From the NCBI GenBank assembly GCA_031371805.1, contig JANMKB010000244.1:1-41324 (forward strand): a DNA stretch of 41,324 bases, in the 5' to 3' direction. The notes under the pieces are model-generated. The model saw only the letters and a list, made by a program, of their open reading frames with translations. It did no database searches and was not told the origin of the DNA. Each line of letters opens with the position of its first letter. Within the stretch, counting starts at the first letter, position 1. The translations under genes were made by a program, and so were the position numbers. This DNA is from Blastocatellia bacterium. Its GTDB lineage: Bacteria; Acidobacteriota; Blastocatellia; RBC074. Of the stretch, positions 8,181 through 29,774 are shown piece after piece.

Positions 8181-8642
8181 ATGTCAGAGAAAATTATCAG
8201 CTCCAACCGAGCCGCCTACCATAATTATTTTATCCTTGATACTTACGAAGCGGGAATCGTACTCAAAGGGACGGAAGTGAAATCTGCGCGTGAAGGCAGT
8301 GTGAATTTGAAGGAAGGATATGTCCTGGTGCGCGATGGCCAAATCTGGTTGCTCAATGTGCATATCAATCAATATTCACACGGCAATCGTGAAAACCATG
8401 ACCCGACACGCGAACGTCGCCTGTTAATGCACAAGCGCGAAATCGTCCGCTTGCAATCAAAAATTAAGGAAAAAGGCTTGACTGTCGTCCCGACAAAATT
8501 TTATTTCAAGAATGGATTTATCAAGTGTGAGATCGGCATTGCGCGCGGAAAGAAACTGCACGATAAACGCGAAACGGAAACGAAAAAAGATCAGGAGAGA
8601 GAAGCGCGTTCAGCGCTGAAACAACGAAATAGAGATGATTAA
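8181..8642 (+). CDS. smpB: SsrA-binding protein
   Basis: NRAAYHNY..YEAGIVLKGTEVKSAR, RERRLLMHKREI, ARGKKLHDKRE. Confidence 0.97.
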   Translation: MSEKIISSNRAAYHNYFILDTYEAGIVLKGTEVKSAREGSVNLKEGYVLVRDGQIWLLNVHINQYSHGNRENHDPTRERRLLMHKREIVRLQSKIKEKGLTVVPTKFYFKNGFIKCEIGIARGKKLHDKRETETKKDQEREARSALKQRNRDD

Positions 8643-8644
8643 AA

Positions 8645-8672
8645 TGTCCAACAAACTGAAGTTTATTGGACA
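8645..8672. repeat. REP-like palindrome
   Basis: TGTCCAA-C-AAACT-GA-AGTTT-A-TTGGACA just after the smpB stop. Confidence 0.6.
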
Positions 8673-8750
8673 CTTGAAAATTTAATTTACGGTGTAATTA
8701 TTAAAGCAAACAAGGAAGTTTGCCGGATATTTTAGGAGCTAATAAATCAA

Positions 8751-10244
8751 ATGGAAGTCAAAGCAGACGCACGGAAATTTCACGAAATCGAATGTGATGC
8801 GTTGGTGGTCAGTGTCTACGAAGGCGAAAAGCCGGAGGAGAGCAACGCCTTAGCCGAACTGGACAAACGTTCCAACGGAGTCATTACTTCATTGATCGAA
8901 AATGGTGAATTATCAGGGAAAACCGGAGAAATTGTTTACCTGCACAGCCCCGGCGACATCGCGGCAAAGCGTTTGTTATTGCTCGGCGCGGGGAAGCTGG
9001 CGGATTACAATACCGATGTCGTGCGACGTGTGGCGGGAACTGCGGCTCGTTTTCTGCGGGCAAAAAATGTACGCAAATTTGCTTTCTTACGACGCTCACA
9101 AATTCCGCTCGGCGATGCCGTTCAGGCAGGCGTCGAAGGGGCACTGCTCTCACTGTGGGACGCCAATAAATATCACACCAGCGACAAAGAAGAGAAGTTG
9201 ATTGAGCAAATGATTCTGGCTACTGTTGAAGGCGATTCTCAGGAATTATCGCAGGGCGCTGAGCGTGGACAAATTTTAGCCGAAGCCGCCAACTTCGCCC
9301 GCGAAATCGTCAACGAACCAGGCAATTACATGACTCCGACCGAACTTGCTCGTCAGGCGGAAGAGGTTGCGCAAAAATACGGTTTAGAAATTGATGTGCT
9401 TGACGAAGCGCGGATGAAAGAGCTTGGCATGGGGTCTTTGCTGGGCGTTTCACAGGGCAGTGCCGAACCTGCCAAATTAATTGTGCTGACGTATACGCCA
9501 AGCGCCGAGCCGACCTCGAAAGAAACCATCGCCATCGTTGGCAAAGGGGTGACGTTCGACACGGGTGGTATTTCAATTAAGCCAGCGGACAGCATGGAAA
9601 AGATGAAATACGATATGGCTGGCGGCGCGACAACCATTGCGGCGATGCGGGCGATTGCACAACTCAAGCCCTCTATGAATGTTATTGGTATTGTTCCCGC
9701 CGTCGAAAATATGCCGGGCGGACGTGCGCAGCGTCCCGGCGATGTTGTTCGTTCGATGGCTGGTAAAACTATCGAAGTTATCAACACCGATGCTGAAGGT
9801 CGTTTAATTTTGTGCGATGCGCTGACGTATGCGATCCAGCTTGGCGCGACGAAAATTGTAGATTTGGCGACGCTGACCGGAGCCGTTTCTATCGCGCTTG
9901 GCGATGTGTATGTTGCCGCGTTGGGCAACGATCAGGAATGGATAGATGCGGTAATTAACGCAGGCAAAGCTTCGGGCGAAAAGATTTGGCAATTGCCACT
10001 TGACCGTGAATACCGCGATCAAATCAAGAGCGATATTGCCGACATCAAAAATGTTGGCGGTCGCAAAGCCGGGACGATCACTGCCGCATATTTCCTGCGT
10101 GAATTTGTCGGCGATATTCCCTGGGTGCATCTCGACATCGCGGGTACAGCCTGGAATGACAGCAGCAAACCTTATCTTTCAGTTGGGCCGACAGGAATTT
10201 GTGTCCGAACACTCGTGAACCTGGTGAATCAAATGGCGAGCTAA
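8751..10244 (+). CDS. pepA: leucyl aminopeptidase (M17)
   Basis: VGKGVTFDTGGISIKP, MKYDMAGG, NTDAEGRLILCD, ATLTGA, WVHLDIAG. Confidence 0.96.
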   Translation: MEVKADARKFHEIECDALVVSVYEGEKPEESNALAELDKRSNGVITSLIENGELSGKTGEIVYLHSPGDIAAKRLLLLGAGKLADYNTDVVRRVAGTAARFLRAKNVRKFAFLRRSQIPLGDAVQAGVEGALLSLWDANKYHTSDKEEKLIEQMILATVEGDSQELSQGAERGQILAEAANFAREIVNEPGNYMTPTELARQAEEVAQKYGLEIDVLDEARMKELGMGSLLGVSQGSAEPAKLIVLTYTPSAEPTSKETIAIVGKGVTFDTGGISIKPADSMEKMKYDMAGGATTIAAMRAIAQLKPSMNVIGIVPAVENMPGGRAQRPGDVVRSMAGKTIEVINTDAEGRLILCDALTYAIQLGATKIVDLATLTGAVSIALGDVYVAALGNDQEWIDAVINAGKASGEKIWQLPLDREYRDQIKSDIADIKNVGGRKAGTITAAYFLREFVGDIPWVHLDIAGTAWNDSSKPYLSVGPTGICVRTLVNLVNQMAS

Positions 10245-10361: not shown

Positions 10362-11144
10362 TAAGCACCTAAGCAAAAGTAATGCAGTATTTTGAGCCGA
10401 CACCTTTTAAGACCGCAAAAAGGTCTTTCGTTAATTGTGCAAACGACTCACTCGTGCTCAGGGGCAACCATTCGTATTTGATTTTGCGCCACAGGTGTTC
10501 GATCAAATTCAGTTCCGGGCAAGAGGGCGGGAGGTGCATAATGTGCAGGTCGTGCGCCTCTCAGTCTTCCAGGCGGTCGGTAAAATCCGCGCTCCAATGA
10601 ACGGGCGCCTTGTCGCGTACGACCAGCGCCGAGCGCTTGAGTTGACCGCAAATTCGTCCAGACAATAAATAATGGTGTCACTGTCGAGCGACTGTGTGAA
10701 CGCGTAAGAATGAAACTCTTGTTGCAGGCTCCACAAGCCCATCACGTTCTGGCGCGGCCCGTGCGCGGCAGCCAACTCCCAGCACTCGCCGACTTTTTGC
10801 CACGCATACGGGACACTCGGAATGGTCGTGAAACCGGCTTCGTCGCTGTACCACAAATCAAACTCACGTTTGGGCAAAGCGCAATATTGACGCAGGTCGG
10901 CGCGCGTTTGTGTGGCGCCACGAAAGGCTGCTTCGTCCCGGCTCGAACGCCGGCTGCGGCGCCTCCGTTTCCAGGTATAGCCGGCTGCCCGGAGCCAGCG
11001 TTTCAGTGTCTCTTTACTCACGATTTGCCGAAAAGTAGTCGTGATCCAATGTAATCCCTGGCGCAACAAACGTGGCTCTTTAAGCGTTTGCGCAAGGGCT
11101 TGGGACTGTTCTTCCGCGTTCAGTTTTGGCGGTCGCCCACTGCT
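10362..11144 (-). mobile_element. IS630-family element remnant (left end deleted, transposase frameshifted and with an internal stop)
   Basis: SGRPPKL, winged-helix segment, YSDEAGF; then in another frame VVRDKAPVH...ED*EAH...LPPSCPELNLIEHLWRKIKYEWL...KYCITFA*. Right end TAAGCACCTAAGCAAAA at 10362. Confidence 0.88.
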
Positions 11145-11186
11145 CACCTTCTGCTTTATCAATCCTTCCTGTGTGAGGGGCTTCAT
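11144..11186 (-). pseudogene. HEPN-domain gene 5' remnant
   Basis: Restoring one T gives MKPLTQEWIDKAEG, a typical HEPN N-terminus, overlapping the MNT end. Confidence 0.65.
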
Positions 11187-11480
11187 ATAAAACTTTTCCG
11201 CGCTCCATGATTTCCTGCATAAAGCGATCTCCCAGCCGCAAATGTTCGCTCACCTGATCAGACGTTCGCACTAATAAATCAATCGGAGTAAGCGTATTCA
11301 GATATTGGAGAATTTTGATCGCCTGCAGGTGTGCCGTCCTTCGTAATCCATCACCACCAGCAAGTCAATATCGGATTCAGGCCTGGGTGTGCCATCGGCC
11401 TGCGAGCCGAATAAGATGATTTTGTCGGGATGAAAATGCGCGGCAATTTGTTTGCTAAATTGTGCAATGCGCGATGCCAA
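11160..11480 (-). pseudogene. minimal nucleotidyltransferase (MNT antitoxin), frameshifted
   Basis: FHPDKIILFGSQADGTPRPESDIDLLVVM; second frame PIDLLVRT...GDRFMQEIMERGKVLYEA. Confidence 0.85.
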
Positions 11481-11765
11481 AAAGTTTTTGGGGACAGTGG
11501 CGGAAGGGGTGACAGTTGTTGTTGCAGCGGCTCGGTTCAGGGCGAGTGAATTGTACGGGGTTCACGTAGGCGTGTCAAAAAAATAATTTCGTGCTGATAA
11601 GGAGAATTGAGATCGGAGCCGCCTGATTGTGGGGTGATTTTGCCGTCTTGCAATATTGCTTGCCATCGTCTAAACCCGCTGTTATTCTTGCCGTTTATTT
11701 TGCTGTCAAAAATGATGACATGGCTGTGCAGCAAATTTTTCAAACCTTAGTACCAGGCAGGATTT

Positions 11766-13583
11766 ATGACCAACCCTATTCGTAATATCGCAATCGTCGC
11801 GCACGTTGATCACGGCAAAACTACTTTAGTTGATTCAATGCTCAAGCAATCCGGGCTGTTCCGCTCCAACGAAAAAGTTGTCGAGCGCGTAATGGATTCG
11901 ATGGATTTGGAGCGTGAACGCGGCATCACCATTATGGCGAAAAATACTTCGGTGCATTTTGGTGACCTGAAAATTAATATTCTTGATACGCCAGGTCACT
12001 CGGATTTTGGCGGCGAAGTTGAACGCGTATTGACGATGGTGGATGGAATTCTTTTGCTGGTGGACGCTTCAGAAGGCCCGCTCCCGCAAACGCGTTATGT
12101 TTTGTCAAAGGCTTTGGAACTAAAGCTGAAACCAATTGTTGTTATCAACAAAATTGATCGCCAGGATGCGCGCGTAGAAGAAGTCGTCAGCGAAGTCTAC
12201 GACCTGTTTATTGACCTTGACGCGGATGATGACCAGATTGAATTTCCGATTTTGTATGCAATTGCCCGCGACGGCATAGCGAAGCATGAACTGGATCACG
12301 AAAGCGAGACGCTGAAACCACTGTTTGAAGAAATCGTCCGCACGATCCCAGCGCCAATTGGTAACCCAAACGCACCGTTGCAAATCCTGGTGGCGAACCT
12401 GGATTACAGCGAATACGTCGGACGCCTGGCAATCGGACGTATTTTCAATGGCTCCATTGCCATCGGCGATCAGGTCTCAGTCTGTGGCATTGACGGACAA
12501 CTTACAAAAACCAAAGTCACACAGCTTTACGCTTTTGAGGGCTTGAAACAGGCACCGATTGAACGCGCCGAAGCAGGTGAAATCATTGCGCTGGCCGGCA
12601 TCGAAGGCATCAATATTGGCGATACTGTGACCTCGGCAACCGACCCGCGACCGTTGCCGCGCATCCACATTGATGAACCGACGATCTCCATGATTTTCAG
12701 CGTTAACAATTCGCCGTTTGCAGGCAAGGAAGGGAAGTACGTGACTTCGCGGCAAATTCGGGAACGCCTGGATAAAGAATTGCTTGGTAATGTGGCAATC
12801 AAAGTCGAAGACACCGATTCGCCGGAAAAATTCAAAGTTTCAGGCCGCGGTGAATTGCAACTCGCAATTTTGATTGAGCAAATGCGCCGCGAAGGTTTCG
12901 AGCTTAATGTCGCTCGCCCCCAGGTTGTCACGCGCAAAAATGACGAAGGCGGATTGCAGGAACCCATTGAAATGGCAGTGATTGACGTACCTGATCAATT
13001 CATTGGCATCGTCACCGAAGCGATGGGACGCCGCAAAGGGCAGATGACGAAAATGGTCAATCACGGTCACGGTCGGGTGCGGATGGAATTTGAAATTCCT
13101 TCGCGTGGGTTGATCGGTTTCCGCAATGAATTTTTGACCGAAACTAAAGGTACAGGTTTGCTCAACACATTATTCCTGCGCTGGGGAAAATGGCAGGGCG
13201 AGTTGCACGGACGCGGCACAGGCTCGCTGGTTTCGGATCGCACCGGCCCGACAACGGGATACGCAATTTTCAATTTGCAGGAACGCGGCGAATTGTTTGT
13301 GAAACCGCAAGTCGAAGTTTACGAAGGCATGATCGTCGGCGAAAATTCACGTGTCGTTGATTTGGATGTGAATATCGTCCGCGAAAAGAAGCTGACCAAC
13401 ATGCGCGCCTCCAGCGCCGATGAAGCGTTACGACTTGTCCCCGTGCGCGATTTGACCCTGGAACAGGCCATCGAATACATCGCCGAAGATGAACTGGTCG
13501 AAGTCACTCCAAGCTCAATCAGAATGCGCAAGAAAGTATTGCCAGCGAATATGCGCCCGAAATCCAAGAAAGCGGCGGAATAA
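11766..13583 (+). CDS. typA: translational GTPase TypA/BipA
   Basis: [55 protein letters not shown]. Confidence 0.98.
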
Positions 13584-13633
13584 TTGTCACTACGCGGTTA
13601 AGAGGCTAAAGTATTCTGAAAGGAGCTAGACTA

Positions 13634-13867
13634 ATGGCGCAAAACTTACTCGTTGAAATTGATCTGCCTGAAAGTCTGAATCAGTTCAAATTGCCTGTTG
13701 GCGTGAATGAGCGATTACAGGATTTACTAGATCGCCAGGATCAAGGCCAGAGCCTCTCGCACAATGAAAGAAAGGAAGCTGAAGGGCTGGTTGATTTGGC
13801 GGAATTTCTTTCATTACTGCGGTTGCGAACTCAAAGAATACAGCGTGAAGGACAGCCTGCCGCATGA
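13634..13867 (+). CDS. small helical protein, putative antitoxin partner of HNH nuclease
   Basis: AAGGAG RBS; ATGA overlap with the HNH gene; RLQDLLDRQD...ERKEAEGLVDLAEFLSLLRLR. Confidence 0.75.
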   Translation: MAQNLLVEIDLPESLNQFKLPVGVNERLQDLLDRQDQGQSLSHNERKEAEGLVDLAEFLSLLRLRTQRIQREGQPAA

Positions 13868-14274
13868 GTTACATTTCGGCATTTCTGCGACGGCTCGCTA
13901 TCCGTAGGGCAAAGAATCGTTGTGAATATTGTCGTTTGTCGCAAGTTGGGCAGGAAGCCACTTTTCATATTGATCATATCATTCCGGTTAATGCTGATGG
14001 GCAAACTATCGCTGACAATTTAGCCTTGGCTTGCGTTTCCTGCTCATTACGGAAAGCCGCCCGTCAAACTGCCATTGATCCACAAACTAATCAGAAAGTT
14101 GCGTTGTTTCACCCACGTCAAGAGCGGTGGACAGATCATTTTTACTGGGAAGGCCCGGAAATTATTGGTCTGACGCCGACAGGCCGAGCAACAATTGCTG
14201 CTTTGGATATGAATCGTAAATTGATCCTGGCAATTCGCGTAGAAGAAATTTTATTGGGACGGCATCCAAACTAA
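13864..14274 (+). CDS. HNH endonuclease
   Basis: RCEYC...FHIDHIIP...DNLALACVSCSLRK, LFHPR..W.DHF.W, GLTPTGRATI..L.MN. Confidence 0.9.
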   Translation: MSYISAFLRRLAIRRAKNRCEYCRLSQVGQEATFHIDHIIPVNADGQTIADNLALACVSCSLRKAARQTAIDPQTNQKVALFHPRQERWTDHFYWEGPEIIGLTPTGRATIAALDMNRKLILAIRVEEILLGRHPN

Positions 14275-14291
14275 ACAAAATTTTTGACAAG

Positions 14292-14395
14292 TAAGTAGGT
14301 CGGCAGAATCATTACGGTATAAAGATTCGCTTTCGGTCAATGAAAACAGGGCAGTCAGATTTCAAAATACCAGAATAGATTTGCCTGGGTACTTA
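14292..14395. mobile_element. 104-bp MITE-like element related to IS630
   Basis: TA-bounded imperfect TIRs TAAGTAGGTCGGCAGA...TTTGCCTGGGTACTTA. The last 34 nt align without gaps to the IS630 right end at 10362-10395. Confidence 0.75.
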
Positions 14396-14421
14396 GGCTT
14401 TACCCAAACGCGAACCCGTGC

Positions 14422-14600
14422 GCATCAACGGCAGATGAAGCGGTGCGCTCAGTGTCCGTGCGCGAACTGACGTTGGAACAAGCAATCGAATATATCGCCG
14501 AAGATGAACTGGTCGAAGTCACTCCAAGCTCAATCAGAATGCGCAAGAAAGTCCTGTCAGGGAATATGCGTCCGAAGTCAAAGAAAGCGGCGGAGTAATT
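14422..14600 (+). repeat. diverged second copy of the typA 3' end (58 codons plus stop, no start)
   Basis: Aligns ungapped to 13407-13585, with a 59-nt identical core (14494-14552 = 13479-13537). Encodes [58 protein letters not shown]. Confidence 0.95.
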
Positions 14601-14759: not shown

Positions 14760-15173
14760 TTATTTTGATTTTTTCTCTAATAGAGCATTGATTGCATTGA
14801 GTACATTTGCAGGTAATACTGTTTCTGATACTCCACCATCCTTAAATTTAATAGAGCGATTAACAACAAAAGATTTAGTTAAATCTTCGGTTAATGTCAC
14901 TACCCAGCGCACATTTACATCTTTGTCATAAATAAATATAACGGGGATTGTTTTTTCTTCTAAGGACTCAAAGACTGGAGGTGTCTTTTTAGCTGATTTG
15001 CCTTTGACCAGCTCGTAAGTGTCACCATTAGCTGTGATTATTAGCGTACCCTGTTCAGTGTTTGTAGCCCTAAAAGGAGATTCTATTAAGGTGCTCCAAG
15101 CACCTGTTTTAATCCAGCTATCTTCTATAACTTTTTCATTATCATTATTTTTCTCATCGCTAATATTAATCAT
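14760..15173 (-). CDS. hypothetical protein (AT-rich)
   Basis: 137-aa ORF, 12 bp downstream of the preceding same-strand ORF. Confidence 0.6.
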   Translation of the reverse strand: MINISDEKNNDNEKVIEDSWIKTGAWSTLIESPFRATNTEQGTLIITANGDTYELVKGKSAKKTPPVFESLEEKTIPVIFIYDKDVNVRWVVTLTEDLTKSFVVNRSIKFKDGGVSETVLPANVLNAINALLEKKSK

Positions 15174-15185
15174 TTTTACTTTATT

Positions 15186-15778
15186 TCAATTACCTTTTAC
15201 CTGCCCCCAAGAGGTTATTTGATTGTCGGCAGCTATATAAAGCGCACACTTCCCCTCTTTGTTTATGACAAAATCATAGTTGATCTCAGGGTTAGTTGAT
15301 CTTACTTTACCAGTAACTGTATCAAACAGGTAGGCAGACTGAAGAGGGGTTAACGTTATATACTCAGACTTATCATTAATAAACCCAATATTCATTAAAT
15401 TAGATATTACTTTGCTGTTATGATATTCAGTTGTCTCAAGGTTGCTTATTTTAATCCGGGCCAGTGCATAGGCATTACCGTTAACTTGCAATTTAGAAGA
15501 CAATGAATAAATATAATCTTCTTCAATTTTCCACAGTGGGATAGTTGAGTTGGTGAGAATTGAGACAGGCAAATACCAGTTAGTTTGTTTCGCGTTATTA
15601 GATAAGTCGAATTTTGTCAAGGTACTAAATTGATAGAGGTCATCGGTCTTTACGATCTACAAGTAGTCCTTGCTAACAGTGATGGTAAAATCAGCTTGGT
15701 TAGGTGGTTCTTGCCCTAATACTTGCCAAGCATTTTCATTGATACAAAAGATTAAACATAAAACTATCAAGGTTATTC
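15186..15778 (-). pseudogene. secreted hypothetical protein, 5'-truncated with in-frame stop
   Basis: The frame of ORF 15186-15620 extends upstream through TAG (15657-15659) to a signal-like ITLIVLCLIFCINENAW segment that lacks its start codon. Confidence 0.55.
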
Positions 15779-16761
15779 TAACTCAGAGCATTAGGCGCTA
15801 TTGTAAAGTTTGCGCGGATCTGTGTGTCTGTATTTGAGGCAATCGTATACGTTATTCCAGTGCCACTAATTTGAAGCAGCGGGTTTATGCCAAACCCAAT
15901 TCCGTCAATAACAAATTCTTTGGTGGTTCCTGACTCCCAGGCTGCCGGACTAATAGCGGTTATAGTAGGGGTAGGATCACCAACTGTGAACGCTTGTTGA
16001 TTACTAATTCCGAACATATTGGTGAGAGTTAAGGTTTGTTGTCCTGTTGTGGCGTTACTGGCAAGTGTGTAGTATAAGTTCACTTGCGAGTAACTAACAT
16101 AAACAGGAGTGACAGAAGGATTTCCACCACTGATTTGGGCTTGTGTGGTGCCAAGCATATATTGCCCATAAATCTCTATATAACCGGAACTACCTCGGAC
16201 TGCCCCTGATGGAATAATTCCTTCAATTGCAGGTGGACGCGCGGCATAGCCAACCCCTGTTGTCCCAATATAAATATAACTACTTTGGACGTAGAGAGGG
16301 CCGCTATTAGGTAAGAATTGAAACCCACTGGGGTTTGAATTGCCAGTGGAGCCGAAATTAAAGCCCGCAGGGTTATAGTAACTATACCCATAATCAGGGT
16401 CGTAGTAGGTGTAATAAGCAACGACGTAGTGATCACTTTCCAGCTTATAGCTGGAAGGAATAACTACTGGCGCATGCATGTAGCCGTAAGCTATATTCTG
16501 AGAGCTTCCACTTAAACCGCTTCCTGACCGTATGAGTACCCAAAGCAGTCCTTGTTTCTGGTAAAGATACCCTCCGACATATGCGTCATAATAAAAGTTT
16601 GCATAGTAATCAAGTTCAGTTGCCGAATAAGTGTCAACTGTAACGGGGTTGGGGTTAATTATTGCTGAAACGCCAATCACATATTGCGCCTGAGCTGCTT
16701 ACGTTCCAAGTGAAATAAGCACTGCAATAGAAAATGCAATTGTGAGCCAATAACGAAACAT
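15778..16761 (-). pseudogene. secreted IPT/TIG-repeat protein; stop in signal peptide and 3'-truncated
   Basis: MFRYWLTIAFSIAVLISLGT*AAQAQY (TAA 16699-16701); IPT repeats PPAIEGIIPS..IEIYG and PTITAISP..IDGIGFG; ends abruptly within the second repeat. Confidence 0.7.
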
Positions 16762-16769
16762 CTGAGACT

Positions 16770-17211
16770 ATCGCGCTCTTTCTGCATTTTTATTAACTCC
16801 TATGGAACTTTAGGCAAAGCGTCACGCGAAGGTAATTTTCCATCCGGGAAGTTCTTTCTTTCATTTGCGATAAAGGCTTTTGCCTTGGAATCTTGCAAGG
16901 CGAGTGTGGTTTCAAGTTCAGTAGCAGCTTGATTCAATTTAGTAAATTCCCCATCCGTAAGCCCTAATTTCTTTTGATAATAAACACGGAGCGGTTCGCC
17001 CATCTTCTCCTTGCTTTTTCATCTCATCGGATTTCTTTTCGCAATGATTTACATGGCCTAAGAAATGCCGATACACCAAATGATCGGGAACTGTCGTTGC
17101 GGGGTTAGCGGGCACATTATTGGTATTTACTGGTTTAGTGTTTTGTGCGGCAATGAAAATGCTGAGAACAAAACAGAGGATGATTGAGCTACCTAAGACA
17201 TAAGCTTTCAT
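16770..17211 (-). pseudogene. secreted helical hypothetical protein, frameshifted
   Basis: ORFs 16939-17211 and 16800-17003 join by a frameshift near 17000; reading continues past the TAG (PKVP*ELIKMQKERD). Confidence 0.7.
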
Positions 17212-17342
17212 GAGGTTCCTTTTTCTCTGTCAACTGCTTGACGCTTTGGTAAGGGCGGTGAGTTTGGTATTTTACCGCTGGTTCTTTTGATAATTTGAAC
17301 TACACGCATACGTAGCCCGTCTCAAAAAAGATCGTGATGAAT

Positions 17343-17427
17343 TTCGCCAAAGAACAGGGCAGCGTTCTGTTCCTGGCGAAGACAGTAATTAGTTCAGGTC
17401 TGTACCATAGAAAGTACAGGCAGGACT
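17343..17427. promoter_or_regulatory. two inverted repeats in the divergent promoter region of the XRE gene
   Basis: TTCGCCA..GAACAG/CTGTTC.TGGCGAA and CTGTAC-N8-GTACAG (17400-17419). Confidence 0.4.
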
Positions 17428-17467
17428 TAGCGAAATTGCAAAGAGTTTTTTCAGGAGGTAACTCCTG

Positions 17468-17764
17468 ATGCCTTTAGGGGGACGCGTTAAGCCGGAGCGG
17501 TTGCCAGAAAAGCTATTGCAAATTCGCGTGGCATTGAATTTGTCGCAGACGGATTTGTTGCGGCGGCTGGGGCTGGAGGACGATTATTTTTATACGATCA
17601 TTTCCAAGAATGAGCTTGGCACACGTGAACCGACGTTGCGCGAATTGTTAGGCTATGCGCGGCTGGCAAATGTTTATGTGGAAGTTTTGATGGATGACGA
17701 CCTGGATTTGCCAATGGACATCCCCGTTCTGAAAAAACATGAGGGCAACAGGCGGAAGAAATAA
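17468..17764 (+). CDS. XRE-family HTH transcriptional regulator
   Basis: EKLLQIRVALNLSQTDL...ISKNELGTREPTL..L..YARLANV; AGGAGGT RBS. Confidence 0.85.
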   Translation: MPLGGRVKPERLPEKLLQIRVALNLSQTDLLRRLGLEDDYFYTIISKNELGTREPTLRELLGYARLANVYVEVLMDDDLDLPMDIPVLKKHEGNRRKK

Positions 17765-18707: not shown

Positions 18708-18803
18708 AACTAATTCCCGTAGCTCTTGATTGAACGAGGCATCTATCGTTTTTGACAGGGTTGACAATAATACGTCATCGGTTCTTCTTTACGCTAGTTC
18801 CTA

Positions 18804-18871
18804 ATGCGGAAACACGCACGCAGTAAGTGTGGTTTTCATTCTGCGCCCTTACTGCGTGCGGGCTTCCGCAT
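18804..18871. repeat. REP-like long palindrome
   Basis: ATGCGGAAacaCGCACGCAGTAAG ... CTTACTGCGTGCGggcTTCCGCAT. Confidence 0.75.
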
Positions 18872-18940: not shown

Positions 18941-19338
18941 TTACTTAATCACAAACGCGGACAGCTCTTTCGGATTCTTCAGATTGAAGATGCGACCTTC
19001 CCGTTCGTCAATACAGTAATCGGGGTCTTTGTCCCTGAACATCACCTGACGATCACTTTCACCTGTCGTCATATTGACGCCCACCACGCCAGCGGCTTTT
19101 TCTTTGCCTTCCACCAGGTTAGTCATGATGTATGCAAAATTGTTCGTGGTTTTTGTCGCGCTGTAACGTTTGGTTAAAAACTTTTCGTAAGTAAGGGGCC
19201 AACGTCGGTCATTTCATACCATTTGATGTCCAGCGCAGGTTTGTGTGTCCATGACGCACCATCGGCGAAAATGTTAGTGGTGAAGGCAATGAGGAATAAA
19301 CAAAAAATCCCTGGCATCTGTGAGCGAAAATTTTTCAT
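18941..19338 (-). pseudogene. secreted (beta-propeller-like) protein collapsed by internal deletion
   Basis: Signal peptide plus N-terminus (MKNFRSQ...IFADGASWTHK...DIKWYEMTDVG) joined out of frame to a C-terminal segment (KRYSATK...GVVGVNMTTGE...PDYCIDE). Confidence 0.5.
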
Positions 19339-19610
19339 AAATATAAACTCTCCCTGGGTGGAAAAATGGGGTTAGCGGTAGCGGGGCAGCAGTCAATAAA
19401 TCGGGGTCGTTGATTTATCTGACAGTGGGGGTTGTGAAAAGATTGGGCGAAAGAGGAGCCATCTTTCTTCACCTCAATAACGCAGGGTTTAGGGATAAAA
19501 GGTGCCAAGAAGTAGAAAATTTTTTGGTGGTGAGATTTAATTGCGATAAGGTTGACTGGTAATCGTTAATGTAAGTGAAATCCTTAATTTTCAAAGCGAG
19601 ATAAAAAATC

Positions 19611-22013
19611 ATGAGGCGTCGTAATTTCTTAAAAACAAGTGTCGAGACCGCTGCGGGTGTGGCACTGGCGAGTTGCTTAACCGTCAACGCCAACGCTGCC
19701 GATTTGCCGCAGCGTACAAATGTTTTGTGGTATCGCCAACCGGCAATAAAGTGGGAAGAGGCGTTGCCACTGGGCAATGGACGATTGGGCGCGATGGTAT
19801 TTTGTGGCGTCCAAACGGAGCGGTTGCAAATTAACGAAGACACCATCTGGGCAGGCGAAAAACGTGATCGTAATAACCCGGAAGGCGCGCACAGCATCCC
19901 GGAAGTGCGCCGCTTGTTGATGGAAGGCAAAATCAAAGAGGCTGAAGTACTCGCCGAAAAAAATATTATTTCAATTCCCAAACGCCTGCCTCCGTATCAG
20001 CCGTTTGGCGATTTGATACTGAGGTTTTTCGGGCAGGAAAAATTTAGCGATTATGTCCGCGAACTTAATCTGGACTCCGGCATTGTCAGCATAGATTACA
20101 AATCCGGCGGCGCGAATTTTACCCGTGAAATTTTTTCCTCCGCTGTGGATCAGGTGATCGTGATGCGCCTGACCTGCGACAAACCTGGTCGCATTTCGTT
20201 CGCGGCTACTTTGACGCGTGAACAGGATGTGAAAATGCTGATTGTGGCAGGCAACCGCGTTGTGCTGGAAGGCGAAGCGATTGCGCGAGATGAGAGGCAT
20301 CATGACGAACGCAAAGTCGGCGTCAAATTTCAGGGCGTGTTACAGGTGATGCCCGAAGGCGGAAAAACCAGAGTTGAAGGCAACGAATTTGTCGTTGAGA
20401 AAGCCAATGCTGCGACTTTAATTTTTGCGGCGGCAACTAATTTCAAGCAAAAAGATTTTGCGGCTCAATGCGATCAGTATTTGGTTGCAGCAAAAAAGCC
20501 TTACACCAGACTGCGGGCGGCTCACGTTGCCGAGCATCAAAAAATATTTCGCCGCGTTGATTTCAGGCTCACTACTTCGAGCCCCGATTTACCAACGGAT
20601 GAGCGATTGCAGCGCATAAAAACTGGTGCATCTGATCCGGGGCTGGAAACTTTATACTTTCAATTTGGCAGATATTTGTTGATGGGGAGCAGTCGTCCCG
20701 GCACGATGGCGGCGAATTTACAGGGCATCTGGAATGACAAGCTCGCGCCGTCGTGGGACAGTAAGTTCACGATCAACATAAACACGGAGATGAATTACTG
20801 GCCTGCCGAAGTTTGTAATCTGACCGAAATGCATGAGCCGCTGTTTGGCCTGCTTGAAAATGCCCGCGAAGACGGACGCAGAATAGCGAAGAATTTGTAC
20901 GGCGCACGCGGGTTTGTTTTGCACCACAACACAGACGCGTGGGGGCATGCCGTACCGATTGACGGAGTTAGTTCAGGGCTTTGGCCAATGGGCGCGGCGT
21001 GGTTAAGCCTGCATCTGTGGGATCATTATGATTACGCCCGCAATCAGGTATTTTTGACGTATCGTGCCTATCCGATAATGAAAGAAACTGCCGAATTTTT
21101 TCTTGATTATCTGTTTGATGATGGCAAAGGGCAGCTGCTTACCGGGCCTTCAATTTCGCCGGAAAATCGTTACCGCACGGCTGCGGGTGCAGTTGGAAAA
21201 CTTTGCATGGCTCCGGCGATGGACAGCGCCATCGCGCATGCTCTTTTCACACGGGTGATTGCCGCAAGCGAGATTCTGGGCATTGACGAAGATTTTCGCC
21301 AACAAATAATTGCGGTTCGTGATCGCCTGCCAGCGCCAAAAATTGGTAAGTATGGACAGTTGCAGGAATGGCTGGAAGATTATGACGAACCTGATCCTGG
21401 TCACCGCCACATTTCGCATTTGTTCGCGCTGCATCCGGGTAATCAAATCACGTTGCACGGCACGCCGGAACTGGCAATGGCGGCGCGTGTTACGCTGGAG
21501 CGCAGACTCAAAGCCGGAAGCGGTCACACCGGATGGAGCCGGGCGTGGATCATTAATTTTTGGGCGCGACTGGGCGAAGGTGACACGGCGCACGAAAACA
21601 TTCTGGCCTTGCTGGCGAAATCAACGCACCCGAATCTTTTTGATAATCATCCGCCCTTTCAAATTGACGGAAATTTTGGTGGTACGGCAGGCATGGCGGA
21701 AATGCTGTTGCAAAGCCACGCTGGAGAAATCAGCTTTTTGCCCGCACTTCCGCGAGCGTGGTCAGAAGGCGCAATCAAAGGTTTGCGGGCGCGTGGCGCG
21801 GTGGCAATTGACCTGAGCTGGAAAGATGGAAAAGCTGCGCTGGCAGTTTTGCGACCACAAATAAACGGCACACATAAATTGCGTGCGCCACGTGGTCAGA
21901 AAATTATTGACGTGCTGGAAAATACAAAAAAACTCTCCGTCCAAACGGCTGACGACGGGTTGTTGATGGTGCAGATTGTGGCTGGCAAAAAATACGAAAT
22001 CAAATTTAGCTGA
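19611..22013 (+). CDS. GH95 family alpha-L-fucosidase, Tat-exported
   Basis: MRRRNFLK; WEEALPLGNGRLGAM; FQFGRYLL; ANLQGIWN; NINTEMNYW; HRHISHL; PFQIDGNFG. Confidence 0.93.
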   Translation: MRRRNFLKTSVETAAGVALASCLTVNANAADLPQRTNVLWYRQPAIKWEEALPLGNGRLGAMVFCGVQTERLQINEDTIWAGEKRDRNNPEGAHSIPEVRRLLMEGKIKEAEVLAEKNIISIPKRLPPYQPFGDLILRFFGQEKFSDYVRELNLDSGIVSIDYKSGGANFTREIFSSAVDQVIVMRLTCDKPGRISFAATLTREQDVKMLIVAGNRVVLEGEAIARDERHHDERKVGVKFQGVLQVMPEGGKTRVEGNEFVVEKANAATLIFAAATNFKQKDFAAQCDQYLVAAKKPYTRLRAAHVAEHQKIFRRVDFRLTTSSPDLPTDERLQRIKTGASDPGLETLYFQFGRYLLMGSSRPGTMAANLQGIWNDKLAPSWDSKFTININTEMNYWPAEVCNLTEMHEPLFGLLENAREDGRRIAKNLYGARGFVLHHNTDAWGHAVPIDGVSSGLWPMGAAWLSLHLWDHYDYARNQVFLTYRAYPIMKETAEFFLDYLFDDGKGQLLTGPSISPENRYRTAAGAVGKLCMAPAMDSAIAHALFTRVIAASEILGIDEDFRQQIIAVRDRLPAPKIGKYGQLQEWLEDYDEPDPGHRHISHLFALHPGNQITLHGTPELAMAARVTLERRLKAGSGHTGWSRAWIINFWARLGEGDTAHENILALLAKSTHPNLFDNHPPFQIDGNFGGTAGMAEMLLQSHAGEISFLPALPRAWSEGAIKGLRARGAVAIDLSWKDGKAALAVLRPQINGTHKLRAPRGQKIIDVLENTKKLSVQTADDGLLMVQIVAGKKYEIKFS

Positions 22014-22048
22014 ATAACTTAACTCGCCTTACTTTTGCCAGCGCCCGA

Positions 22049-23515
22049 TTATTCCGCCCGATAATTAGGTGCTTCTTTTGTAATGAACACATCGTGAACG
22101 TGTGATTCTTTCAGGCTGGCGGCAGTGATTTTGATGAAGCGCGCATTCGTTTTCAGTTCTTCAATTGTGCGGCATCCGGTGTAGCCCATGCCCGCCTTCA
22201 GGCCGCCAACCAATTGTCCAACTAAAGCCGCCAGCGAACCTTTGTGCGTCACGCGACCCTCGATGCCTTCGGGAACCAGCTTGCTTTCGGCTTCGGTGGA
22301 TTCCTGTCCATAACGATCTTTGCTGCCTTCTTTCATCGCGCCGATGGAACCCATGCCGCGATAAGATTTGAAATTGCGTCCCTGATACAAAATGATTTCG
22401 CCCGGCGATTCGTCCGTACCGGCGAGCAATGAACCAATCATGACGGAGTCTGCGCCGGCGGCAATGGCCTTTGTCACGTCGCCGGAAAATTTAATTCCGC
22501 CATCAGCAATGATCGGGATGCCTGAACCTGCCGCTGCTTTCGCGCATTCGGCCACGGCAGTGATTTGGGGAACACCTGCGCCAGACACGACCCGCGTAGT
22601 GCAAATTGAGCCTGGCCCCATTCCTACTTTTACTGCGTCTACGCCTGCGTGAATCAGAGCTTTTGTGCCTGCTCCGGTTGCCACATTGCCAGCGATTAAT
22701 TGCACTTCGGGATATTTTTGCTTGACTGCTTTAATGGCTTCAAGCACGCGCACAGAATGACCATGCGCAGTATCAATCGCCAGCACGTCGACGCGCACTT
22801 TGATGAGTTCAGCCGCGCGTTCGAGAAAATCTCCGGTTGCGCCAACGGCTGCGGCGACGCGCAGTCTGCCCAAATCATCTTTGGCAGCGTTGGGATATTT
22901 GATCGCTTTCTGAATATCTTTGACGGTGATGAGTCCTTTGAGGTGATAGTTTTCGTCCACTACTAACAGCTTTTCGACGCGATGCTTTTGCAGGATACCT
23001 TCAGCCTCGCGCAAAGTTGTGCCGACAGGAACGGTGATGAGATTGTCTTTCGTCATCACTTCAGAAATAGAGAGTTCCAGCCGATTCTCAAACCGCAAAT
23101 CACGATTAGTCAGAATTCCAACCAGCCTGCCATCACTCTGCACAATCGGCACACCGGAAATTTTAAAGCGCTGCATCAATTCCAGCGCATCGCGCAGCGG
23201 ACGTTCCGGCGTAATTGTTACCGGATCAACGATCATGCCAGATTCGGAGCGTTTGACTTTATCAACCTCATCGCGCTGCACTTCAATCGGGAAATTTTTA
23301 TGAATGACTCCGATGCCACCCTGTTGCGCAATCGCAATTGCCATCGGGCTTTCGGTGACAGTATCCATCGCTGAGCTAAGAAGCGGGATATTCAAATAGA
23401 TGGTGCGAGTTAAGCGCGTGATGGTGTCCGCTTCGGTGGGCAAAAATTCGGAATAATCAGGCAGTAATAAAACGTCGTCGAATGTCAGTGCTTCGGGTAG
23501 ATTTTCGGTTAGCAT
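22049..23515 (-). CDS. guaB: IMP dehydrogenase
   Basis: [19 protein letters not shown] pair, [29 protein letters not shown]. Confidence 0.98.
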
Positions 23516-23560
23516 AAATTTAGAGCTTTATTTTTATCCGCAATAACTTGGAGCGGTCTA

Positions 23561-23599
23561 TAAATAAACAAAAACCGCGCAGGCTTTTTTGCCGCGCGG
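23561..23599 (-). terminator. strong intrinsic terminator ~45 nt upstream of guaB
   Basis: Minus strand CCGCGCGGC-AAAAAA-GCCTGCGCGG-TTTTTGTTTATTT. Confidence 0.8.
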
Positions 23600-23697
23600 G
23601 TCTGGATTACGAACGATTAGCATGGTGCCGCATCTGGGCAGCTTTGCCTCGTGACCACTCCACGAGTGCCATTTTAGGAAAATCATCAACCAGCCAT

Positions 23698-24546
23698 TTA
23701 CTGGATAAACTGCTGGTAATTTTCTTTGGTGATAACAACACTTTCAGCAATGAACTTGCCCTTGTTTGCGTTGATCCTGATGGGACGCCCATTAAGGTAA
23801 GCATCCAGGGTCGTCACGTTACCAATATTAACAATCAATCTATCGTTGCCGGAAATCTCCCTGATCTCGCCCGGCTTGAGCGTCACCATTTCACTTTTCG
23901 GATTGGCGTCAGCCCGGACTTTAATCCAGCATTCTCCATCTTTGGCTTGCAGCTTTAGTTGCAAGGCTCCCGTCAGGGGAGGAGCAGGTGTCGTGGCTCC
24001 TGGTAATGAAGGTGATGGTGATGCACCAACTGATGAAGTTGTAGCAGGTGACTGGGTGCTTGTAACTGAAGCGGTCGGAGATGACGAAAGTCCTTCATCA
24101 GGTGTTGCTGAAGTTGTAGCATCAGGTGTTGCTGAGATGGCAACAGGGGGAATAACTTCGCTTGCTTTGAACCAGCGGTAAGCTGTGAAAATTCCTGCAC
24201 TCAATAAAAGTAAAATAATTACAATGAGAGCGATGCTGCCCCATGGAGAACTGACTTCTTCATCAATTCCTTCCATGCTCGGCGCTAAGGTGCGAGGTGC
24301 TTCGCCGCCCTGAGATTCTAACTGCTGTCCATACATCACCAGCGCCTGCTCTTCGTCCATCCCGACAAAACGAGCATAGCTGCGCACAAAGCCGCGATTA
24401 AAAATGCCGCCAGGAAGAATTGAGTAATTGTCAGACTCAATTGACTGTAAGAACCGACCACCAATATGAGTTGCGTCAGAAACGTCCCGAATGGTGAACC
24501 CTTTTTCTTCCCGCAATCGCTTGAGTTCTTCGCCTAATGTGGGCAT
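23698..24546 (-). CDS. rodZ: RodZ-like protein (HTH, TM, linker, DUF4115)
   Basis: LGEELKRLRE...LPGGIFNRGFVRSYARFVG; single TM; S/T/P linker; CWIKVRAD...IGN. Confidence 0.8.
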   Translation of the reverse strand: MPTLGEELKRLREEKGFTIRDVSDATHIGGRFLQSIESDNYSILPGGIFNRGFVRSYARFVGMDEEQALVMYGQQLESQGGEAPRTLAPSMEGIDEEVSSPWGSIALIVIILLLLSAGIFTAYRWFKASEVIPPVAISATPDATTSATPDEGLSSSPTASVTSTQSPATTSSVGASPSPSLPGATTPAPPLTGALQLKLQAKDGECWIKVRADANPKSEMVTLKPGEIREISGNDRLIVNIGNVTTLDAYLNGRPIRINANKGKFIAESVVITKENYQQFIQ

Positions 24547-24695
24547 GCGTAACCTTTGCCTATCCCCTTCTACATCCTGGTTCTGCGATGAGATTTTTTT
24601 CGTGAATTATTGATCTTGAAAATACAGCTCAACAAGTCGGCAATCTTACAGTTAAATTATCGCGGCTGTCAATTTTGCAGGCACACTATTGTTTT

Positions 24696-25961
24696 TTACA
24701 TTCGTTTCGTGGCAGCCAGTCGGGCTGCCTGTTTGCGAATGACATCAGGAACATTGCGATTAGAGGTCAGCGCCTTCAGGTCTTTGGGGAACAAGCGATT
24801 GAGGAGCGGCAAGCTGGTTCCAACAGGAGTCCGGGCATTTTGTACCAGATGGTGAATAATTGGATAGCTCCGAATCCATTGGCGATTGAGTGCAATCAGG
24901 CGCAATCCTTCTTCTGGCAAGGACTTCATCGCTGAGATTGCTTCAACTTCGGGCTGGGTAATCCGTGGATTGCCGAGGACACCGAGAATGACCGATTTGT
25001 TGGAATCGCGGCGTAGAATGTTGCGTGCTTCGCGGTTACCTTTGAGGGCGAGCTTGACGCGTGATTTGATATTCATTCTGGTGATCTTCTGCATCATCGT
25101 CAGGCGCTCGACGGTTGTCTCTTCACCATCCATCTTCATTTCATTGATGATGCGCTCAGCTTCAGCTTCTGCCTCAGAGTCAGCCGGGGTTTCAGCTTCA
25201 GAGCCGACTGAAACTTCAACCAATTGTTGCGGCGGATCGGGTTCTTCCTGAACCCGTTGCATTTCATCCCGAATAATTTTAATGAACTCGGACCCTATCT
25301 TAGGATCATCATCGGATTGAAAAGCTGCTTCAAAATTCAGGTCTTCAACCGGAATGTCGTCATCAAGCATGTCCGGCAGGGATTCTTCGACATAGTTGAG
25401 ACCTAAAGCCGCAGACATCGCTGCTGCACGGGCGCGACGTTCTTCGCCAATGCGTTTGGCCCCCAGTTCTTTCTCGAAAAATTCAATTCGTACTTCTTTT
25501 GCTCGGCGAATGGCTTCGGCACTACTGGCTTTGTTCTCAATCAGTGAGGTAATAATTTCAGGATAGCGAATCATGCGTTCCTGATTGATCGCAATCAATT
25601 CAAGTAATTTAGCTTCTTTATTCCAACGCGCTAATTCAGTGATTCCCTGATCCGGGGTCGAATCATTCAGAATCAGGGCTTCGTAAATCTCCGTCTTACC
25701 GCCACGCCAACTGCATAAATGTTGCAAAATATCCCGTGGGGTTTCTTTTATTAACACAACTTGGCGCATTCTTTCAGGCGCAAAATCGTTCAGAGATTTC
25801 GTGGCTAATGAGCGTATTTCCGCGTCATGATCTTTGCTCAGAACAACGAGAATTTCCAGCAGGTCTTCCGATGGAATGGGTAGCGCAGCACGGGCGGCAG
25901 CGAGTTTGGCGGCAGCAGGGGCGGCTCCATTACGGATAGCAGTAACAATAGGACTAGCCAT
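24696..25961 (-). CDS. conserved hypothetical helical-repeat protein
   Basis: 421-aa ORF with an acidic linker and C-terminal RVKLALKGNREARNILRRDSNK..VL.NPRIT..EV. Confidence 0.8.
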   Translation of the reverse strand: MASPIVTAIRNGAAPAAAKLAAARAALPIPSEDLLEILVVLSKDHDAEIRSLATKSLNDFAPERMRQVVLIKETPRDILQHLCSWRGGKTEIYEALILNDSTPDQGITELARWNKEAKLLELIAINQERMIRYPEIITSLIENKASSAEAIRRAKEVRIEFFEKELGAKRIGEERRARAAAMSAALGLNYVEESLPDMLDDDIPVEDLNFEAAFQSDDDPKIGSEFIKIIRDEMQRVQEEPDPPQQLVEVSVGSEAETPADSEAEAEAERIINEMKMDGEETTVERLTMMQKITRMNIKSRVKLALKGNREARNILRRDSNKSVILGVLGNPRITQPEVEAISAMKSLPEEGLRLIALNRQWIRSYPIIHHLVQNARTPVGTSLPLLNRLFPKDLKALTSNRNVPDVIRKQAARLAATKRM

Positions 25962-26013
25962 AAAAAATTAAGCGTAAAGATAAAACGAGAAACTGCGCAC
26001 CTGATGTATCAGG

Positions 26014-26793
26014 TTACCTGACATTTTCATCCTGAAAAAATAAATATCGGCTGGGTCTTTCCGAGGTGCCACGTTCAAAACCCGCGCAATATAAACCTTC
26101 CGACAGGTATTGTTGAAATGCCGAACGGAGTTTGAGTTGCCATTCCTGCGCCTCGGCCAAATGGCGGGCTTTAATTTGCTCAATGTCAAAGGGGACTTCG
26201 ACAAAAGCCTGCGGCGTTGCTGAAGTCTGAGTTTCTCCAGTCTGATTTATGATGGTATTAACACGTGGTGAATTCACCCACCATTCAATCAGCAAACGAT
26301 CTGTATCCAATCCGCGATGTAAGGTGCTGGTGCTATGATGACCGCAATAATTGACTTTATATTTGCGAACGACTCCGCCCAGCTTCACAATATTGAGATA
26401 AGCATTGCGCGATTGCAGCGGATCAAAGGTCCAAACCATCAGGGGAACATTTAATTGTAAAGCCCGCTGCCGTTGCGCGAATTTGAGCTTCATCCCAATC
26501 CCTGAATTTTGCAGTTCCGGCTTAACCGCTAACATGTGGGAGTAATAATAAGGTTGCAACCGATCATCAAAGGCTGGCAAGGCATGGGCAAATCCAAGCA
26601 TCTTTCCATCTTTATCTGCAAATGCGCCCAGGGTAAATCCACCGCTGTTTTTAGTAATGACCAGAGAGCGCGGAGGCGTAATATCCAAATCCGAGAATTG
26701 CCAAACCTCCCGCTGCATATCAAGACAGGCGCTATAATCCTCAAAACTTGCGCAATCACGAATTTGATGGCTTGGCGAATAAGTAAGGGACAT
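26014..26793 (-). CDS. GNAT family acyltransferase (type often linked to N-succinylamino acid racemase)
   Basis: YYSHMLAV...GIGMKLKFAQRQRAL...WTFDPLQSRNAYLNIVKLG...GLDTDRL..EW. Confidence 0.85.
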   Translation of the reverse strand: MSLTYSPSHQIRDCASFEDYSACLDMQREVWQFSDLDITPPRSLVITKNSGGFTLGAFADKDGKMLGFAHALPAFDDRLQPYYYSHMLAVKPELQNSGIGMKLKFAQRQRALQLNVPLMVWTFDPLQSRNAYLNIVKLGGVVRKYKVNYCGHHSTSTLHRGLDTDRLLIEWWVNSPRVNTIINQTGETQTSATPQAFVEVPFDIEQIKARHLAEAQEWQLKLRSAFQQYLSEGLYCAGFERGTSERPSRYLFFQDENVR

Positions 26794-27010
26794 ATCTAAA
26801 GAGTAGCAAAATGAGAAAAGATGAGAATACTGTTGGAGGACGTAGCTCAAGTCAAGATTTAAATCAATAATTAAGTTTAATGTTGTTTAAGGTACGAGTG
26901 GGATGCTATATTTTACCCGTCTCGTTCTGACCGCCTACCGAGCATCGCCCCGCAATTAGATTTTTATTGTGTTTATTATTTAATTGCCCCTTCAAACAGG
27001 ATTCTCACCT

Positions 27011-27217
27011 ATGACCAGCTATTTTCGTGCGGAAATTAATGGCAACGCTCAGGACTGTGCCAAACTTATCAATGAATTACGTGACAGCAAATGGGATATC
27101 TACGTTGACGAGGGATATTTGATTGTTTCAGAGATCGAATGGGATCGTTTGGAACAGCTTGCCAGGACCTATCATTGTGAAATCAATTCATTATCTCAGG
27201 TTCAGCAAGCCGCATAA
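27011..27217 (+). CDS. small hypothetical protein
   Basis: 68-aa ORF filling the intergenic gap, plausible protein composition. Confidence 0.55.
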   Translation: MTSYFRAEINGNAQDCAKLINELRDSKWDIYVDEGYLIVSEIEWDRLEQLARTYHCEINSLSQVQQAA

Positions 27218-27239
27218 TTACTATTTGGCGACGCCCTCA

Positions 27240-28055: not shown

Positions 28056-28151
28056 GACAGCTAACTTAATACCATAAAACAAAAGCCAGCGCTCGTTGTC
28101 GAGAGCCGGCCTTTGCCTCAACCTCAGATTGTGACTGATGATTACTACGCG

Positions 28152-29348: not shown

Positions 29349-29774
29349 AAAAAATTAATCCTCCGAGTCATTTCATTAAGCTGGACATTAATCTGCGAAG
29401 TGTCAGAATTGATCCGGCTATTGCAGAAACAGCCTGCCGAACATCTGTTTTTTATTAACCTGACCGACACCGCAAAAACTTACTGACAAATTATCAAAGG
29501 GGAAACTTGAATACATCGCAAAGTCGCAACACGCAGCATTCAAATCTCTTCCTCTGTCTTCAACTGCATTTTCCTCAATTTCCAATCAATTCAATTATTC
29601 AGTCGCAAATTTTACAACCAGCAAAAAGATTGATTTGGGCGAGAGGGGTAAGCGGGGCAACTGTATCATCAAACGCACTTCCCTGAAACTTGTCAGATGC
29701 TTGCGTATTGTGCATGATTCAAATACTTTGTCAATTGCCCTAACTGCGAACACTTAGTTGATGCTAAAGCGAAC

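Follow-up and report, generated by a model that had tools for sequence, protein, structure and literature searches.

A repeated typA gene end around a small HNH gene pair in a Blastocatellia genome: a probable footprint of additive gene transfer by host recombination

Organization of the typA locus

The window analyzed here is a stretch of 41,324 nucleotides that makes up one whole contig (JANMKB010000244.1) in the genome of a Blastocatellia bacterium (GCA_031371805.1), a metagenome assembly of 6.25 Mb in 753 contigs with 4% contamination. It carries an intact typA (bipA) gene whose 3' end, hereafter the tail, occurs a second time behind a pair of small genes, one of which encodes a protein of the HNH family. 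We regard this layout as the probable footprint of additive gene transfer by host recombination, i.e., of an insertion with long target duplication. The locus has the following features:

11766..13583, + strand: typA/bipA, 605 aa, intact, the anchor gene (Pfam GTP_EFTU, BipA_C, EFG_C)
13407..13585, + strand: repeat copy 1, codons 548-605 and stop of the functional typA
13479..13537, + strand: 59-nt block identical in both copies (codons 572-591), a putative crossover or gene-conversion tract
13634..13867, + strand: 77-aa three-helix protein of no named family, a putative antitoxin or regulator of the HNH protein (from gene order only)
13864..14274, + strand: 136-aa HNH-family protein (Pfam HNH, E 1.3e-10)
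14292..14395, no strand: miniature inverted-repeat transposable element (MITE), 104 bp, non-coding, beginning with TAAGTA and ending with TACTTA, with imperfect terminal inverted repeats (18/28)
14422..14600, + strand: repeat copy 2, a stranded typA tail without start

Only one full-length typA was found in the assembly. Copy 2 lies 1,015 nt downstream of copy 1 and repeats the last 58 codons and the stop. Upstream of codon 548 the homology ends, and copy 2 has no reading frame leading back to any start. The gapless duplication with an identical core reported in a preliminary description of the window is borne out: the copies are identical at 151 of 179 nt (84%) with zero gaps, and their longest identical run is the 59-nt block (13479-13537 and 14494-14552). 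The codons that differ do so mostly synonymously, with 11 synonymous and 5 non-synonymous differences before the block, 6 and 2 after it (as counted earlier), and 17 and 7 over the whole repeat. The length of the identical block, 19 consecutive codons where 34 of 58 agree overall, is beyond chance (permutation p = 5e-5). The identity of the block does not reflect a conserved DNA motif, because 55 pairs of typA genes from 11 relatives in the genus show a mean of 7.7 differences (minimum 1) over these 59 nt; the longest identical run in any of these pairs is at most 47 nt.

The 838-nt spacer between the copies contains two open reading frames (ORFs) and the non-coding MITE, and no integrase or transposase gene. 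The two ORFs had been described before as an HNH cassette, while the MITE had been missed. A search with a DNA profile of the typA tail gave no other remnant in this genome at E < 0.04, nor in the tested regions of relatives, and a scan for promoters and terminators gave no excess over shuffled sequence.

Recurrence of gene-tail repeats

The last 58 residues of TypA were used as a query against the genomes of the class, 371 of which gave a match out of 401 (four class genomes marked as unpublished count in the denominator only). More than one match was found in 9 genomes. Eight were kept, G000 included, which amounts to 8/371 or about 2% of the genomes; the extra tail of G173 was inferred from four contig-end pieces. 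Both matches of G262 lie at contig ends, and this genome was excluded as an assembly break. Among metagenome loci, a second typA tail was found in 2 of the best 80 of 595 confirmed loci (58 with at least 1 kb downstream). Within the family, extra tails occur in 5 of 78 genomes with a match for typA (four of them in one genus) versus 1 of 83 for the control gene guaB. When the 5' end of typA was used as a control, one genome out of 80 matched twice, and this second match lies at the edge of a contig; the threshold (E <= 1e-18) would miss short pieces.

Eleven tail repeats were measured in 10 genomes or loci: eight at typA and one each at guaB, a TonB-type gene and an Rpn-like gene. They span 66-213 nt, are 78-99% identical, all align from the stop codon, and together hold 99 synonymous versus 26 non-synonymous codon differences; their longest identical run has no fixed place. 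The cargo between the tails varies, e.g., a PIN pair (L172), a Panacea pair (at guaB in G012), a 131-aa ORF (G161) or a 1,611-aa ORF (L202), and the typA tail copies elsewhere flank cargo without a recognized HNH gene. No integrase-like ORF was recognized in these loci, where ORF lists were read by eye and some of the cargo proteins were scanned for families. Classing the 57 same-contig repeat pairs of the window's own genome gave, besides typA, two layouts of gene, small pair and tail, at a kinase gene (C234) and at an Rpn-like gene (C197), the latter of which could have another cause. The layout is special neither to typA nor to the HNH nuclease: guaB, a TonB-type receptor gene and two further genes in the window's own genome bear the scar as well.

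The guaB case of G012 is informative since relatives have the empty site. There, guaB is followed by the Panacea pair and a guaB tail, and the sequence after this tail is the one that directly follows the single guaB copy in G009 and G003. At the three informative sites that differ between the copies, the stranded copy has the G009/G003 base (3/3). In this case the resident tail was displaced while the working gene took foreign bases, and the identical block is not the left boundary of the exchange.

Integrative elements that target the 3' ends of protein genes carry a replacement tail, which is their classic footprint; they encode an integrase, and their crossover is fixed where the repeat has its 5' end. 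Our locus resembles them in its intact gene with a recoded tail and in the displaced tail downstream; it differs in that neither an integrase beside the copies nor a fixed crossover is seen. The main rival explanation is that the repeat is what remains of an integrase-driven island that targeted the 3' end of typA with a recoded replacement tail and later lost its integrase and most of its body, or of a gene-less islet moved by an integrase in trans. The MITE could have trimmed the body of such an island. This would agree with the higher frequency of extra tails at typA than at guaB, with the repeats of G000 and G014, whose 5' ends lie near -183, each with AGGCTTT some 17 nt further upstream, with the displaced guaB copy of G012 being the resident tail, as after integration, and with eight tyrosine-recombinase matches elsewhere in the genome. 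However, four of the five typA cases of the family come from one genus, the AGGCTTT of G014 falls in the last codons of the gene abutting the stub, and the same scar occurs at unrelated genes. The 5' ends of the repeats range from -66 to -213 and their identical runs lie at differing places, so that there is no fixed crossover position. Moreover, no integrase-like ORF was recognized between or beside the copies in the loci read by eye, including a case with 568 nt of cargo that must be recent because its repeat is 99% identical. We consider an integrase-driven origin rather unlikely.

Several other arrangements were observed near such repeats. In the window's own genome, C234:7761-11341 contains the kinase gene, a small pair, the kinase tail copy and a second small PIN-like pair, i.e., two stacked islets with a gene-tail scar between them. 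Two start-less tails lie on contigs other than those of their genes (C396:23061-24362 with C644:8530-8871, and C611:9899-10594 with C707:10398-10505; 349 nt and 159 nt, 82-85% identical), and the tail copy on C644 adjoins an Rhs-like locus. Two related PIN-like pairs stand in tandem at C247:20359-21735, between aspS-like and mutL-like neighborhoods (labels by eye). In other genomes, a 184-nt, 95% direct repeat surrounds an HNH pair (L267, G170:C75, 3662-5903) and is an internal piece of the upstream gene rather than its end, and a 256-nt, 80% direct repeat surrounds a DUF6036 nucleotidyltransferase pair (L266, G001:C415, 1119-2398). The stranded typA tails of L079, L081, L083 and L077 (G014, G215, G212 and G325) adjoin an Rhs-like locus or modules resembling extracytoplasmic function sigma factors and Ser-Thr kinases (labels by eye), which suggests that the typA end also anchors larger accessory blocks. 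In G248, the end of an unrelated gene matches the first part of copy 2 over 42 nt, which was regarded as a chance similarity.

The two tails are different alleles

Outside the identical block, the proportions of synonymous and non-synonymous differences between the copies are pS = 0.65 and pN = 0.10, with dN/dS = 0.15. The null hypothesis that copy 1 was under selection and copy 2 neutral since the duplication is rejected (P = 0.0011). Among 38 typA tails of the family, the approximately unbiased (AU) test rejects the two pre-core segments as sisters (p = 0.016). The tails are therefore alleles of different functional typA lineages, in line with the earlier argument that neutral decay of a duplicate would not leave such a pattern. 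By these comparisons, copy 2 descends from a typA that was functional in another lineage until fairly recently. Its substitutions L555V, L557S and P559S fall at positions invariant in 38/38 family tails and indicate that it has since begun to decay. The 59-nt block, in turn, requires recombination between the two tails.

If instead the resident typA end had been duplicated locally in tandem, and the cassette had been inserted afterwards while copy 2 decayed neutrally and underwent one recent gene conversion, no second allele would be needed. Such a history could account for the decay of copy 2 at invariant residues and for the post-core segments, neither of which has a closer sequence than the other (81% over 37 columns, support 90/82); near-identical tail repeats, as a true target duplication gives, do exist elsewhere (98% in G161, 99% in G179). 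It is contradicted by the excess of synonymous differences, which is significant even with copy 1 under selection, by the absence of indels in 179 nt and by the AU test. In addition, copy 2 has T550 and E562, which occur jointly in the working typA of 9 of 26 genomes of other genera and in none of the 12 of its own genus. We thus find a tandem origin improbable.

Which of the two tails is foreign is less clear. The residues at 550 and 562 suggest a foreign copy 2, as does the pre-core segment of copy 1, which is nearer to the genes of the genus than that of copy 2 (mean 58.0 versus 52.4 of 72). Site 13458 suggests a foreign copy 1: copy 2 has the base of 12/12 genus genomes, and copy 1 that of 25/26 others. 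Also against a foreign copy 2, the P593 of copy 1 is common only to G003, G009 and G012. The core is slightly more similar to other genera (0.83-0.85) than to the own genus (0.79). Trees of the 72-nt pre-core and 37-nt post-core segments have too few columns to place donor and host. The preliminary description had proposed that the core marks a crossover or conversion tract with a reciprocal swap of the flanks. The need for recombination stands; the swap is less certain, since the pre-core signals conflict and the post-core segment is too short to be placed. Because copy 2 has begun to decay and a block of equal age should hold 2-3 differences by our estimate, a single crossover is no more likely an origin of the block than a later gene conversion.

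By analogy with guaB in G012, the working typA of the window may well end in a foreign tail, as had been suggested before. The functional effect would be small, because the last 58 residues of TypA match those of 12 genus relatives, at 93-97% identity in 11 and at 91% in the remaining one.

The 77-aa/HNH gene pair

The start of the HNH ORF overlaps the stop of the 77-aa ORF by 4 nt, and the smaller gene comes first. The 77-aa protein has 1,604 homologs and its model is helical (predicted local distance difference test score, pLDDT, 81.6), with no significant fold match in PDB. It matched no Pfam, NCBIfam or PADLOC family above the cut-off, and an atlas search gave no name either. An ortholog lies directly upstream of the HNH gene in all 14 other loci where the HNH protein is more than 60% identical. 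Of 8,000 scored candidates, 7,332 are homologs of the HNH protein, whose large family is present in 46 of 87 genomes of the bacterial family. The source labels of these homologs point to Acidobacteriota, probably Blastocatellia. Its Ser61 is invariant across 62 aligned sequences and stands at what we take to be the position of the usual second Asn/His, the third HNH position, which makes nuclease activity uncertain. PADLOC gave only weak matches on the cargo (best PtuB, E 2e-11; REase_II, E 0.002), and the HNH protein has no accompanying methyltransferase. The pair resembles toxin-antitoxin systems of type II in having two small, coupled and co-inherited genes with the smaller first, and differs from them in that the 77-aa protein matches no known toxin or antitoxin family. 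Given its gene order and the kind of cargo found in such slots, the pair, a passenger in our reading, is most likely a toxin-antitoxin-like islet.

It had also been proposed, as an alternative, that the HNH protein could act as a homing nuclease of the free-standing kind, with a recoded tail that resists cutting. In this reading typA would be cut, and the cassette would spread by break repair. The HNH gene does adjoin a recoded gene end. In G179, an ortholog of the pair lies behind a TonB-type receptor gene and is again flanked by a gene-end repeat (127 nt, 97.6%); the nuclease may make breaks during insertion, as proposed for restriction genes (PMC2853133; here and below, the comparisons concern parts of the cited articles). 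However, none of 30 other HNH loci examined contains typA, and their neighbors are unrelated genes. Both alleles, including the 59 identical nt, coexist in one chromosome, and the typA scars elsewhere surround cargo devoid of a recognized HNH gene. The protein itself, with 136 aa, a small partner that always accompanies it among close orthologs and a serine at the third HNH position, also argues against this role. Homing at typA is therefore very unlikely, and this part of the earlier interpretation is not supported.

Flanking region and strain variation

Downstream of copy 2, the window contains:

14760..17764, - strand: block of low GC content (41%) whose genes are broken (137+144 aa, 300 aa and 90 aa), with a helix-turn-helix (HTH) gene on the + strand

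Intact homologs of this block sit directly behind typA in G009 and G012 (22-58% protein identity), and copy 2 thus lies at a typA-end junction seen in relatives. Across the genus, the interval between typA and xseA holds varied small gene pairs, or none (family labels by eye). The MITE has four copies at unrelated sites in G006, partial ones in G012 and G003, and a second, diverged copy in the own genome; its TA ends suggest an IS630-like family.

A false join in the assembly, linking two strains or a chromosome with a free circle via the 59-nt block, would suit a metagenome assembly with the contig number and contamination given above, in which no listed piece spans the whole stretch, but it is hardly credible given the even depth in the run containing the whole stretch, possibly the source sample (cassette 9.8, flanks 8.8 and 9.7), and the non-homologous MITE/copy-2 junction, which a contig of a second study spans at ~95% identity. 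The copy-1/cassette junction is not bridged by any listed piece of that study. Two contigs of the study depart from the window, one to the left of the MITE and the other behind a typA tail. The slot behind typA hence appears to vary among close strains, each case being a single contig at a depth of 3-4. A metagenome scan with the typA tail protein gave distant relatives only (65-78% identical).

Other features of the surroundings were noted. The region upstream of typA holds, at 10509-11186, what is left of an IS630-type transposase, with a weak match to DDE_3, and, at 11080-11480, a nucleotidyltransferase-antitoxin gene that is broken. In G008, a DnaJ-domain-like gene follows pepA and a nucleotidyltransferase/HEPN-like pair is intact at another place, and this different arrangement identifies 10362-11591 of the window as a rearrangement junction. 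In most genomes of the genus, typA is preceded by a DUF4129 gene. Identity to G008 starts abruptly at 19198, and of a gene with at least 306 aa in G008 only the start is left; this marks the right edge of the variable region. The pepA gene (8751-10244) has 91% DNA identity to G012, where the window from 19,000 to 30,000 mostly has 66-79%, and was probably exchanged between the two lineages. Short intergenic repeats at 8640-8700 and 18800-18870 have many dispersed copies in G008, the second also elsewhere in the own genome (matches at ORF starts), and are probably repetitive extragenic palindrome (REP)- or MITE-like. A composite transposon delimited by a 34-nt inverted repeat between 10362-10395 and the MITE end was considered and dropped, as there is no typA 5' remnant outside.

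A probable route by host recombination

Host recombination with one homologous anchor fits these observations, because the 5' ends are variable, the anchors and the cargos are many, and no integrase is linked to them. Foreign DNA with the typA end of another lineage and the sequence behind it would have entered the cell; the genome has a competence-family gene. Trimming would have left less than 200 nt of the incoming typA, and this piece would have been linked with the distal end of the cargo, either by circularization or by an equivalent illegitimate joint on one side. A single homologous exchange within the typA tail would then leave the cargo behind a complete typA, followed by another tail that lacks a start. 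The 59-nt block would be the exchange tract or the product of a later conversion between the nearby copies, and the slot was probably reworked more than once, given the MITE and the different cargo in related strains. We infer the recombination route, its direction and the toxin-antitoxin function from these comparisons, and consider an insertion with long target duplication by host recombination likely overall.

Several observations weigh against this account. The signals expected from a single-crossover swap conflict, as residues 550 and 562 point to a foreign copy 2, site 13458 points to a foreign copy 1, and the P593 of copy 1 is found otherwise only in G003, G009 and G012. A 59-nt block as old as the decay of copy 2 is expected to hold 2-3 differences (estimated from pN), and one event therefore does not explain everything. 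One second-study contig has a different sequence left of the MITE, which implies that the unit of tail, pair and MITE is not fixed. No strain with an empty site was found at typA; G008, the nearest genome with 92-94% DNA identity over the two flanks and a completeness of 95%, lacks typA in its assembly. An exact 23-nt pattern from the core gave 0 matches in metagenome contigs. No Ku gene that could serve the joining step was found in the assembly. Finally, the eight tyrosine-recombinase matches (PF00589) lie on other contigs of the genome, so that an integrase could act in trans.

Comparison with known systems

The first report of insertion with long target duplication is said to be that of Nobusato et al. 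in 2000. Furuta, Abe and Kobayashi (2010, PMC2853133) describe such insertions, including one with an HNH/mcrA gene, and repeats that span stop codons. As in our case, the cargo is below 20 kb, small and nuclease-bearing, lacks a mobility gene, is flanked by variable direct repeats above 30 bp and leaves the gene intact; the repeat is 179 nt and 84% identical here, and 66-213 nt across our 11 cases. The published cargo is made of restriction-modification genes, the repeats are 96-100% identical in part of the table, and an empty site is shown, whereas we have toxin-antitoxin-like cargo, repeats that are two alleles with 84% identity and a synonymous bias, and an empty site only for guaB in G012.

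A plausible route is found in E. coli, where 56 of 60 clones carried a partial lacZ duplication (109-950 bp in the 14 sequenced), explained by trimming, re-circularization and a single crossover (PMC3240628). With host functions alone, this process, related to homology-facilitated illegitimate recombination (HFIR), surrounds foreign DNA with partial duplications of a gene end that vary in length. It differs in that it was seen in laboratory E. coli with identical donor and recipient alleles, and in that classical HFIR is described there as yielding deletions, not duplications. The 3' tips of type VI secretion effector-immunity and Rhs/CdiA loci (PMC5361080) are similar in that a new module behind a conserved anchor displaces older 3' pieces downstream, but there the anchor is a toxin gene whose function changes with the tip, whereas here it is a housekeeping gene with a nearly synonymous tail. 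The H47 genomic island of E. coli (PMC5426353) is recombinase-free and has long imperfect direct repeats that recombine at identical patches; unlike our locus, it is 13 kb long and its mobility was shown by experiment. Solo toxin-antitoxin islets between core genes (PMC13617665) are likewise small pairs that lack mobility genes, and their proposed means of spread is homologous recombination at the core genes on either side. Yet a two-sided replacement leaves no duplicated tail, and the term "direct repeat" is absent from the main text of that article. Our literature search, at the level of titles and abstracts and with supplements and most subscription papers outside its scope, found no description of typA as an integration target or of tail scars in Blastocatellia.

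Biological significance

For the window itself the payoff is modest, as TypA remains complete with hardly any change and events of this class are already known. What deserves to be followed is the survey, with about 2% of genomes affected at typA alone, and the unnamed, widespread pair formed by the HNH protein and its partner. The entry of solo toxin-antitoxin pairs into chromosomes without mobility genes is still argued by inference (PMC13617665, in the part considered here). Tail scars made of two alleles record the event: an additive insertion with one anchor, in nature and across a species-level distance (~15-20% DNA divergence). They also mean that insertion can, as a side effect, exchange the final codons of housekeeping genes. 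More tentatively, and with considerable doubt, toxin-antitoxin-like islets may travel without integrase in these Acidobacteria, each tagged with the last 60-210 nt of its anchor gene. The tail would then be a portable attachment site for host recombination, a circle released by recombination between the two copies would re-enter other strains, and each round would recode the gene end and strand the previous one. The 77-aa/HNH(Ser) pair would represent a toxin-antitoxin family not yet described. If true, such portable tails would provide a general and recyclable route for the entry of solo toxin-antitoxin pairs into chromosomes.

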